Below are positions 37,851 through 41,466 of a stretch of DNA of 44,923 nt, in pieces. Origin of the DNA: Candidatus Neomicrothrix sp. UBA7828 (GTDB lineage: Bacteria; Actinomycetota; Acidimicrobiia; Acidimicrobiales; UBA8592); NCBI GenBank assembly GCA_002500385.1, contig DLTU01000159.1, positions 2,455 through 47,377 on the forward strand, in the 5' to 3' direction. The stretch's first letter is position 1. The number at the start of each line of letters is the position of its first letter. The notes under the pieces are model-generated. The model had not been told where the DNA came from. It made no database searches and was given only the letters and a program-made list of their open reading frames with translations. A program made the translations under genes and the position numbers.

Positions 37851-39107
37851 CTATGAGGCCGCTAGACCGCTCTCGCCTCGTAATATTAATTTAGGTGGCT
37901 CAGTCTTTAGAACTACATCCTCGTTGATCACGCACGAAATAACGTCGTCCCTGCCAGGAATCTCGTACATTACTTCAAGGAGGACCTCTTCAAGAATAGA
38001 CCTAAGTCCTCTAGCTCCTATCCGGCGTTCAAGAGCGAGCGTAGCTATTGCTTCTAGAGCTCCGTCAGTAATTTCAAGATTTACATCCTCGAAACCAAAT
38101 ATTTTCTTGTATTGTTTGATTAAGGCATTTTTAGGTTCATTGAGTATTCTAACTAGTGCATCATTCTCAAGGTTTCCAACTGCTCCCACAACTGGTAGTC
38201 GACCTATGAATTCGGGAATGAGCCCATATTTGACTAGATCCTCGGGTTGAACCTGGGCGTAGAGTTCGGTAAGATTTTTATCATTGGCATTCCGGATGTC
38301 GGCACCAAAACCTACGCCGCTGCTGCCTATTCGGTTTTCAATGATCTCGTCAAGTCCTGCAAACGCCCCACCGCATATGAAGAGAATATTCTTCGTGTCA
38401 ATTTGCAAGAATTCCTGATGAGGATGTTTCCTTCCGCCTTGTGGCGGAACTGAAGCTGAAGTTCCTTCAAGAATTTTTAGGAGTGCCTGCTGAACGCCTT
38501 CTCCTGATACATCTCTTGTTATTGAAGGGTTTTCGCTTTTTCTGGAAACTTTATCTATTTCGTCAATATAGATGATTCCCATTTCAGCTTTCTTTACGTC
38601 CAAATCAGCTGATTGAATTAATTTGAGGAGTATGTTCTCAACATCTTCTCCGACGTAGCCTGCCTCTGTAAGCGCTGTAGCATCTGCGATTGCGAATGGA
38701 ACATTGAGCATTCTTGCAAGTGTTTCAGCCATTAAGGTCTTGCCGCATCCAGTTGGGCCTATCAGCAAGATATTACTTTTAGAAAGCTCAACCTCGTCGT
38801 CACTTTTTTCACCCACCTGAACGCGTTTATAATGGTTATAAACAGCTACGGAGAGAATTCTCTTTGCTTGTTCTTGCCCAATTATGTAATCATCAAGGAA
38901 CGCATTTATTTCCTCAGGCTTAGGAAGCTCATCAAACCCTAACTCAGATGGTTGGGAAAGCTCCTCATCGATTATCTCGTTGCAAAGATCAATGCATTCA
39001 TCGCAAATATAGACACCAGGGCCAGCAATTAACTTTTTAACTTGTTTTTGAGATTTCCCACAAAACGAGCATTTTAGTAACTCTGAGGTTTCCCCGAATT
39101 TCGCCAT
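37851..39107 (-). CDS. clpX: ATP-dependent Clp protease ATPase ClpX
   Basis: Zinc domain [31 protein letters not shown] and the VGF docking loop. Confidence 0.98.
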
Positions 39108-39128
39108 TTCACTTTCCCCCTTCGTTTA

Positions 39129-39764
39129 TTAGACGGCAGTTATTGGGCCTGCGTTGTCAACATTTGGGCGAGAATTGATCACCTCATCAATTATTCCATA
39201 TTCTTTGGCTTCGTACGCGTCCATAATATTATCTCGGTCAGTATCAAGGCGGATTTGCTCCACTGTCTGCCCAGTATGTGTTGCGAGTACTTCTTCTAGC
39301 TGGTTCTTGAGTCTTTGAATTTCCCTTGACGCAATCTCTAAATCAGAGACTTGACCTTGAGCACCTGCATATGGCTGATGTATGAGAATTCGTGAATGTG
39401 GTAATGCTAGCCGTTTACCTGGAGTTCCGGCTGCTAGAAGCACTGCAGCGGCAGCTACAGCTTGCCCGTAGCATATTGTGGCTACTTGAGGTTTGATATA
39501 AGACATAGTGTCATAAATGGCAAATACAGAGTTGATGTTACCGCCCGGAGAATTGATATAAAGACTTACATCTTTGTCCGGGTTCTCGGACTCAAGGTGA
39601 AGTAGCTGAGCGCAAACTAAATTTGCGATCCCATCGTCAATTGGCGTTCCAATAAAAATAATATTCTCTTTAAGGAGTTTTGAGTAAAGGTCGTATCCCC
39701 TCTCTCCTCTATTAGTTTGTTCAACAACAGTCGGTACTAGGTAACTAGTTGGTCCATCAATCAT
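39129..39764 (-). CDS. clpP: ClpP proteolytic subunit, ClpP2-like, with the catalytic Ser replaced by Ala
   Basis: [30 protein letters not shown] and DTDRD motifs. The start is probably ATG 39764 or GTG 39773 rather than 39803. Confidence 0.92.
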
Positions 39765-41250
39765 CTGACTCACTTGATTCTTCTTCCTTGGGGTTGGGGT
39801 CATCAGGGTTACCTCTATTTTGACTCAATTCGGATGCATTTTCTGTGTTTTCAGCGAAGATTTCTTTTTTGTCGATTTCGTTTCCCTCTTCGTCCTTTAT
39901 TTTAACTGAGTCCTCAACTAGTTTGAGGGCTTTTTGCTTCAGTAAATCTGCTTTCAAGATTCGGATTTGACCGTTCTCCTGCAAAGAGTTGGTCAAGTTT
40001 TCCTTTTCCGTTTGAATGCGAGAAGATAATTGCGCATCTATCTCTTCAGGTTTCAATTCTGAGGAATAATCAATTTCTTCAGCTTGTATTGCTGCTTGTA
40101 ACGCATATTGTTTAGCAACATTTTCGATTTCGTTTTCCACGTCGCTATCGGTAACTTCAATTGATTCAGCTACTGCAACTGCCCGCAATGCCAGATCTGT
40201 TCTAACCGCTTGTTCTGACGGCTCTCGTAAGTTTGCAACGATGTCCTCAATAGATTGGTTTGTCGCTTGAAGAAATTGCTCAAACTGCATCCCCTGCTGA
40301 GCCATACGCATCGCCATATCCTGAACTTGCTGCTGAGTTTGTTCTTGTATCAAAGGCTCCGGTATCTCTTCAGTCACCAGCTCAGATACTGCTGCAAGTA
40401 TTTTGGAAGTTGCCTGTCCGGGTAGTTGATTCCGTTTCATCTCCTCCATGCGGTCTTTGGTATCAGCCACAAGCAGGTCAACTGTTTCAAATTCAGATAA
40501 CTCAGCGACTAGCTCATCGGTTAATTCTGGAAGAATTTTTTCTTCAATGCTCAGAATTTTCGCCACGAAACCTAACTCAGTATCCTCCTCAGAAGGGTGC
40601 GGTCCTCCAAATTCAATTTCTTGACCAACTTCCACACCTTCTAGAGATGCGTTAATTTCTTCAATGATAAATGAGGACCCAATTTCGAAGACAAATCCTT
40701 CGGCTGTCAGACTCTCTTCTGGCTCACCATTGATAGCTCCTGATAAATCCATGGTTATAAAGTCGCCAGCAGTGGCAGGTCGGCTAACTTCGTTCCGTTC
40801 GGAAGCTTGCTCTAGCAACCTATTTACACTTTCGTCTATTTCTCCTTGCGTTACGTGTGGACTAGGCACTTCTATTTCTAAGTTTTTGTATCCTTCTATC
40901 TCTAAAATTGGTCTAACTTCAACGGTCGCTTCGAAAACTGCTGGACCAGATTCTTGCCCTTCAATGAGTTCAAGTTGAGGTTGCGCTATGACATCTAGTT
41001 CATGTTCATTGATAGCTTGGAAGTAGACTTCGCCAACGATGTCGTTCAGAGCTTCGCTTCTAGCGTATTCTTTTCCAAATTTAGCTTCAAGCACCTTTCT
41101 TGGTGCCTTTCCTTGACGGAAGCCTGGAAGTTTTACTTCTTTCGATATTTTTTTAAAGGCTTCATCGATTGCGACATCAATAATCTCCTCGGGGACTTCA
41201 ATGTTAACTTTCACTTTGTTATCTTCTAGATTTTTTACGGAACTATTCAC
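39757..41250 (-). CDS. tig: Trigger factor
   Basis: Ribosome-binding [10 protein letters not shown] and an FKBP-like middle domain. Probable start GTG 41250 ([14 protein letters not shown]). Confidence 0.95.
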
Positions 41251-41356
41251 AGACCGAAAGTGTATCTGCTTGTTCGATGCTCTCATCCAAGTGGAGGGTG
41301 ATTTCTGAATCTTCTTTCTATCAAAAATCATAAAAACCCGATAACATCGTAAGCCT

Positions 41357-41428
41357 GCGGGTGTAGTTCAACGGCTAGAACCTCAGCCTTCCAAGCTGAT
41401 GATGGGAGTTCGATTCTCCTCACCCGCT
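41357..41428 (+). tRNA. tRNA-Gly (TCC), CCA not encoded
   Basis: GCGGGTGTAGTTCAACGGCTAGAACCTCAGCCTTCCAAGCTGATGATGGGAGTTCGATTCTCCTCACCCGCT folds as a cloverleaf with a U73 discriminator. Confidence 0.96.
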
Positions 41429-41466
41429 CAGACGTAATATTGTGGACAGGAGCGAAAGAGGTCCAA

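Follow-up and report, generated by a model that had tools for sequence, protein, structure and literature searches.

What does a ClpP subunit contribute to proteolysis when the serine of its own active site is gone? The question is posed by a 44,923-nucleotide stretch of contig DLTU01000159.1 from Candidatus Neomicrothrix sp. UBA7828 (order Acidimicrobiales; the whole stretch is termed the window), in which a single clpP gene between tig and clpX encodes a ClpP2-type subunit without catalytic Ser. A sequence-only reading of the window had proposed a docking-only ClpP2 that pairs with an active ClpP encoded elsewhere, and at the level of sequence this core proposal holds, as the Ser loss is fixed in a clade, the docking residues are intact and a ClpP1 is encoded elsewhere. 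By analogy with other actinobacteria, the protein is probably part of a ClpP1P2 barrel in which the Ser-less ClpP2 ring docks ClpX and ClpC1 while ClpP1 cuts.

The encoded protein belongs to the ClpP family (PF00574, 261.9 bits). The NCBIfam profiles PRK00277 (300 bits) and PRK12553 (273 bits) also scored over their cut-offs, and an AlphaFold2 model has the normal ClpP fold (predicted local distance difference test, pLDDT, 83.5; TM-score of about 0.8 to solved ClpP chains). The frame is otherwise intact, as had been stated before, with two equally plausible start codons, GTG at 39773 (214 amino acids) and ATG at 39764 (211 amino acids, overlapping the tig stop). At the nucleophile elbow, which reads GQAVAAAA, Ser107 is replaced by Ala. 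Position 107 is identified as the nucleophile position because its spacing to Gly78 (-29), His132 (+25) and Asp181 (+74) equals that of Ser98 to Gly69, His123 and Asp172 in Mycobacterium tuberculosis ClpP1 (PMC4436076). Instead of the Ser-His-Asp triad of an active peptidase, the subunit has Ala107, His132 and Asp181, and the earlier observations that the codons GTA GCT at 39458-39453 remove the nucleophile and that His and Asp are kept are both confirmed by frame and spacing. Val-Ala occupies positions 106-107 in all 71 aligned rows of the Ser-less clade and Ala-Ser in all 115 Ser-bearing rows; of the 71 in-clade rows, 70-71 also retain the HQP motif and the D179-R180 sensor.

Such a change could also stem from an error in sequencing or assembly, or mark a pseudogene in decay. 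Single Ser-less ClpP2-like sequences do occur sporadically and are possibly errors (P0101 and five metagenome matches, one of them frameshifted), but the record of the genus makes this explanation extremely improbable. Open tig-clpP-clpX genes were recovered from 17 of the 23 genus genomes, our own included; because all 17 copies encode Val-Ala, with the Ala107 codon in all four forms (GCT, GCC, GCA and GCG), the Ser loss is not an error, in line with the previous argument against a single misread base. Ratios of nonsynonymous to synonymous substitution rates (dN/dS) were estimated pairwise after Nei and Gojobori for pairs with dS of 0.05-1.5. For Ser-less clpP2 the median was 0.009 and the maximum 0.035 (27 usable of 136 pairs), similar to the partner gene clpP1 (0.010; 12 usable of 105 pairs). 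The remaining clpP2 pairs were nearly identical or saturated (median proportions of synonymous and nonsynonymous differences, pS 0.78 and pN 0.05), and most pairs were dropped for saturation. Low dN/dS and saturated synonymous sites therefore show that the Ser-less state is old and maintained; the orthologue alignment finds the loss clade-fixed and under purifying selection. As to read support, a public DNA contig (868 bases, depth 35) matches 39000-39729 with 0 differences and so agrees with the assembly, though it may derive from the source sample and thus not be independent. The runs that contain the stretch are mostly marine metagenomes, and those homologues with 90-93% identity that bear a name are assigned to Acidimicrobiales. 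That some genus members have lost clpP2 was considered and rejected for five of the six genomes without the gene: because these also lack tig, and clpX is either absent or truncated by the end of a contig, the absences are assembly gaps. From the sixth, G022, no ClpP was recovered.

Phylogenetic placement was assessed in a quick maximum-likelihood tree of 157 rows with support from the Shimodaira-Hasegawa-like approximate likelihood ratio test (SH-aLRT; no bootstrap). Matches shorter than 140 residues or interrupted by stops were excluded, as were duplicates and roughly two thirds of L082-L104; only seven proteobacterial loci were retained, and the tree is free of named mycobacterial or Streptomyces sequences and of ClpR rows. 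The Ser-less proteins of the genus form one clade (SH-aLRT 99) that branches from within the order's Ser-bearing tig-clpP-clpX proteins, inside a 61-row group of Acidimicrobiales ClpP2 (SH-aLRT 99) and a 101-row group (SH-aLRT 96) in which the second genes of tandem clpP1-clpP2 operons are also found. By this grouping, the product of 39129-39773 is a ClpP2 orthologue, as its previous typing implied, and a derived one. A lone clpP between tig and clpX is indeed present, yet the peculiarity formerly seen in it dissolves: every tig-clpP-clpX locus fetched from the order has one ClpP2-type gene with clpP1 elsewhere, and tandem clpP1-clpP2 pairs were encountered solely in a different class of the phylum. 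The layout is ordinary for the order and not special to this lineage. Because clpP1 and clpP2 are unlinked in Ser-bearing relatives across the order too, their split predates the Ser loss. In three loci titled Bifidobacterium (L084, L087 and L088), the ClpP of the tig-clpP-clpX cluster falls among sequences of the Ilumatobacteraceae type (in the tree for L084 and L087), and these labels look wrong.

The protein had also been likened to ClpR. It scores 192.3 bits against PRK12552, which we take to be the ClpR-like model, with a cut-off of 263, and descent from the cyanobacterial ClpR clade is contradicted by nesting among Ser-bearing Acidimicrobiales ClpP2 in a tree that contains no ClpR row. 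Judged from profile and nesting, it is not a ClpR member; the likeness stands only in that both are non-catalytic. ClpR of cyanobacteria, plastids and apicoplasts is likewise a conserved ClpP homologue dependent on an active partner, but is described without triad, whereas only Ser is gone here (PMC7966870). Its origin is separate, and Ser-less ClpP2 is predicted to form its own ring and not mixed rings.

How far the Ser loss extends was examined at several distances. Of the top 120 database homologues, Val-Ala is found in 54 (all with at least 89.6% identity), Ala-Ser in 65 (at most 87.3%) and Ala-Ala in one. Ser is kept in 80 of 80 loci from a genome collection that may lack near relatives. 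It is also kept in a sister genus of the same family (G260, 84% identity), and Ser-bearing sister proteins are 84-87% identical to those of the Ser-less genus. Genomes were furthermore scanned with DNA patterns for the ClpP2 elbow, which need intact flanking residues and let divergent dead paralogues escape. The Ser-less pattern, which requires a codon beginning with G or C where Ser would be encoded, matched six of 401 order genomes, all in the genus, and the Ser-type pattern, with a codon beginning with A or T, matched 351, none in the genus. Counted without the genus, these are 351 of 393 order genomes, with no Ser-less match among the 393; the 150 Ser-type matches listed read as Ser codons by eye, and there were 244 further matches. 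In another class of the phylum the Ser-type pattern matched 53 of 61 genomes. The Ser-less pattern gave two matches in 301 genomes there, of which L218 was rejected as lying outside clpP, antisense to an acyl-CoA dehydrogenase-like frame; the matched sequence of the other is identical. Genomes flagged as unpublished contribute two to each Ser-type count (G407 and G165; G490 and G483) and an outgroup row to the tree (G418), and no claim depends solely on them. Because relatives keep Ser, the loss is derived and has a single origin, in this genus. Outside it, Ser is present in essentially every ClpP2 motif found, and genome streamlining was rejected as a sufficient cause, since genomes of 1.4-1.5 Mb are among those that keep it.

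Some further sequences deserve mention in their own right. Isolated Ser-less ClpP2-like sequences outside the genus are P0101, L158, which is also without His, L160 and L161, the second gene of a tandem clpP1-clpP2 pair; for these single records error and independent loss are indistinguishable. A metagenome scan for Ala-Ala, Ala-Gly and Ala-Pro forms yielded the five scattered singletons mentioned above. Two large genomes from another class have additional ClpP2-clade paralogues (L206 and L207) in which Arg replaces the catalytic His, and a further stand-alone ClpP2-like paralogue with Trp right after Ser (GQAASWA) is present in two genomes of the family to which the genus belongs (L046 and L209).

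Is the loss confined to the nucleophile? Across the 115 Ser-bearing rows, 129 sites are conserved at a level of 85% or more. Six of these differ in the Ser-less clade; position 10 is polymorphic and five changes are fixed, namely D79N, A82S, L83V, A106V and S107A, all within two segments around Gly78 and the elbow (the roles of Gly78 and Ile80 were assigned via spacing to Gly69 and Ile71; PMC4436076). No conserved site outside the cleft carries a fixed change. The nominal p of 0.0003 for this clustering, with Ser excluded, is descriptive only, the segments having been picked post hoc and the rows being kin. Such a cluster would be expected if constraint on a dead cleft had relaxed, and also if the cleft had been rebuilt. 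If rebuilt, the dead ClpP2 site might control the ClpP1 ring as a switch that binds peptides without cutting them or works allosterically; we consider this rather unlikely. If true, it would amount to a natural half-barrel protease in which one ring senses and the other cuts, and would provide a direct route to why nearly all other actinobacteria retain a serine that is dispensable in the laboratory.

Retention of activity through another nucleophile has to be weighed at the same site, the clade-fixed Ser82 (71 of 71 rows) with the invariant His132 and Asp181 being a candidate; the authors of a study on Actinoplanes leave open activity without the canonical Ser (PMC13689560). Ser82, however, also occurs in 12 of the 115 rows that keep Ser107 and therefore looks like a tolerated variant, and in the model it falls in helix 80-92 and not at the elbow after strand 97-106, so that an active subunit of this kind appears highly improbable. 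The absence of fixed conserved-site changes outside the cleft bears on yet another possibility, that the dead subunit mixes with ClpP1 within each ring as spacer or regulator, on the model of the cyanobacterial rings of ClpP3 and ClpR. Rings that include non-catalytic subunits beside active ones are described from Synechococcus and plastids (PMC13689560; PMC7966870). Against this, subunit interfaces look ancestral because the fixed changes are confined to the cleft, the subunit descends from ClpP2, which forms homoheptameric rings in mycobacteria (PMC9067928), and the PRK12552 score stays below its cut-off; mixed rings are accordingly given a small probability.

In contrast to the cleft, the predicted docking residues are kept (Table 1): S70, Y72, Y92 and P14 are present in 70-71 of 71 in-clade rows, as is typical of a ClpP2 pocket and N-terminal loop. 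The residues and their spacing correspond to the Streptomyces ClpP2 pocket S94/Y96/Y116, the mutation of which blocked all three ATPases (PMC9765437), and Tyr72 and Tyr92 match Y75 and Y95 of mycobacterial ClpP2 by spacing (PMC4416901, also a source for the N-terminal loop). The docking loops of the ATPases are retained as well, VGF in ClpX and LGF in ClpC1.

Table 1. Features of the Ser-less ClpP2 locus (window coordinates) and of the partner gene.
Feature	Coordinates	Strand	Remarks
clpP2-type gene without catalytic Ser	39129..39773	(-)	open 214-codon frame, flanked by tig and clpX
Val106-Ala107 (codons GTA GCT), replacing Ala-Ser at the nucleophile elbow	39453..39458	(-)	from sequence
His132 of the triad, HQP motif, kept	39378..39380	(-)	71/71 in-clade rows
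Asp181 of the triad, kept, beside D179-R180 oligomerisation sensor	39231..39233	(-)	70/71 in-clade rows, one row truncated
Residues 79-83 (NINSV) adjoining oxyanion Gly78	39525..39539	(-)	three clade-fixed changes, D79N, A82S, L83V
Ser70-Leu71-Tyr72, first part of predicted ATPase-docking pocket	39558..39566	(-)	S70 and Y72 in 71/71 rows
Tyr92, third predicted docking-pocket residue	39498..39500	(-)	70/71 rows; spacing to Streptomyces Y116, mycobacterial Y95
N-terminal axial loop, residues 11-28 with conserved Pro14	39690..39743	(-)	ClpP2-typical
ClpP1-type gene, full triad (L071)	G000:C93:3830-4441		another contig of the same genome
clpX	37851-39107	(-)	21 bases downstream of the clpP2-type gene; TIGR00382, 653 bits
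ClpX docking loop VGF	38307-38315	(-)	within clpX
tig (trigger factor)	39757-41331	(-)	upstream gene of the cluster; TIGR00115, 293 bits

A candidate for the active ClpP postulated earlier is encoded on another contig, C93, and the search for paralogues in the genome returned this one further clpP, of the ClpP1 type. Its product is 49% identical to the Ser-less subunit, groups with the first gene of tandem operons (SH-aLRT 100), and its top solved-structure matches include chains named proteolytic subunit 1. Ser104, His129 and Asp178 are present in 21 of 21 full-length ClpP1 copies of the genus. A third cellular clpP was not found in the 94%-complete genomes G002 and G007; a third match in G018 (L228, G018:C61) was dismissed as a divergent ClpP-like gene on a contig of 27% G+C, likely viral contamination. 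The third pocket position of ClpP1 is Leu in 11 and Phe in 10 of the 21 genus copies (L071, L013-L030, L221, L230-L233), and mycobacterial ClpP1 also has Leu there (PMC4416901). The Leu-bearing copies represent a subclade that includes this genome, as if the docking face were decaying after a split of roles.

With both subunits in hand, it can be asked whether they work together at all. The Ser-less subunit could instead form a protease-dead barrel of its own that binds ClpX or ClpC1 and holds substrates or damps proteolysis, with ClpP1 working alone. The two genes are unlinked, the dead one lies 21 bases before clpX and ClpP1 keeps aromatic pocket residues, all of which would suit such an arrangement. 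The genes are, however, equally unlinked in Ser-bearing relatives, the split being older than the loss; ClpP1 is without the ClpP2-type N-terminal loop and Pro motif, and Streptomyces and mycobacteria need both subunits for ATPase-driven degradation (PMC9765437; PMC9067928). A separate dead barrel is thus very unlikely.

In the ClpP1P2 barrel that we favour, the Ser-less housekeeping ClpP2 would form a non-cutting seven-subunit ring stacked on an intact ring of the ClpP1 encoded on the other contig. ClpX and ClpC1 would bind the Ser-less ring via the Ser70/Tyr72/Tyr92 pocket and the N-terminal loop, unfold substrates and pass them into the chamber, where all cutting would fall to the seven ClpP1 sites. 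His132, Gln133 and Asp179-Arg180-Asp181 are likely kept to help hold the barrel in its active shape; in Escherichia coli ClpP the HQP glutamine and the sensor arginine belong to a network by which the active state is stabilised (PMC9035409), and this would be a reason to conserve the region. Ring pairing, one-sided docking and lack of activity of the Ser-less subunit are extrapolated from engineered mutants elsewhere in the actinobacteria. In M. tuberculosis and M. smegmatis the exchange of ClpP2 Ser for Ala had little or no effect on growth, whereas the ClpP2 pocket and the ClpP1 serine are essential, and it was proposed that ClpP2 scaffolds the chaperones and ClpP1 cuts (PMC9067928). Streptomyces ClpP1 with ClpP2 S131A retained full activity, the ClpP2 Ser being dispensable and the pocket essential (PMC9765437), and in Actinoplanes a clpP2 deletion was unobtainable while S113A was viable (PMC13689560). 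The simplest reading, and in our judgement a likely one, is that the genus has fixed in nature what these studies engineered.

Several points weigh against this picture. The evidence is at sequence level, with docking, binding and activity argued by analogy. Invariance of His and Asp is not obviously required of a purely passive ring. Because the pocket of ClpP1 itself retains Trp and Tyr, as well as Phe in 10 of the 21 copies, docking on the ClpP1 face may also take place. The own genome is 71% complete, so that a further clpP could be missing. Evidence of transcription comprises two short contigs from RNA runs, a 158-base exact piece (39298-39455) and a 161-base piece with 10 differences, obtained without a silent-stretch control, and transcription was therefore not taken as shown. 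Finally, clpP1 and clpP2 are unlinked, and a shared upstream operator was not found in a scan of 14 clpP1 upstream regions that did not extend to those of clpP2 and clpC.

Compared with known actinobacterial ClpP2, the subunit agrees in orthologous group, position upstream of clpX, AxxAAAVLL elbow, S/Y/Y pocket, N-terminal loop proline and a ClpP1-type partner. It differs in that those proteins naturally keep Ser, the dispensability of which was shown with engineered Ser-to-Ala alleles (PMC9067928; PMC4416901; PMC9765437; PMC13689560), whereas here its loss is fixed across the genus and accompanied by four further changes in the cleft, and clpP1 lies apart from clpP2, as throughout the order. 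Natural loss of catalytic residues is known from triad-less accessory ClpPs, i.e., Actinoplanes ClpP3, Streptomyces SCO7280, SGR6291 and Sven0839, and a Nocardia asteroides allele, the three Streptomyces proteins falling in a ClpP2-containing clade (PMC13689560; PMC9067928). Their hosts, however, carry several clpP genes, Actinoplanes and Streptomyces also keep a Ser-bearing ClpP2, and Actinoplanes ClpP3 is without the docking aromatics (PMC13689560). In the Ser-less genus, the dead copy is the only ClpP2 found, resides in the tig-clpP-clpX cluster and has its docking residues intact. In the surveyed literature, which covered few subscription papers, neither a Ser-less housekeeping ClpP2 nor any ClpP from these marine Acidimicrobiales was found described. 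The finding confirms and extends a known mechanism and reveals no new one; what is new is the natural fixation of the Ser loss in a housekeeping ClpP2, with all five fixed conserved-site changes in the cleft. The genus constitutes a natural experiment, lending evolutionary support to the asymmetric ClpP1P2 model, in which a Ser-less housekeeping ClpP2 has persisted long enough to saturate synonymous sites, and together with its Ser-bearing sister it offers a ready-made pair for probing the role of the ClpP2 site.

The own genome also encodes ClpC1, proteasome ATPase-like and proteasome beta-like genes and FtsH (G000:C60:3743-6283, C58:22446-26831, C128); a Lon motif was not matched in the 71%-complete assembly. 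A promoter and terminator scan stayed at chance level (five found versus 6.7 and 4.1 expected). Upstream of clpP1, the only ClgR-like match common to 14 of 14 regions scanned lies inside a tRNA-Leu gene, and a second occurs in five of 14. This tRNA-Leu(TAG) gene (L071:4499-4583) is located directly upstream of clpP1 on the same strand, and its sequence aligns upstream of clpP1 in the 14 genus loci examined. In the window, a tRNA-Gly(TCC) gene at 41357-41429 on the + strand lies just upstream of tig and is divergent from it.
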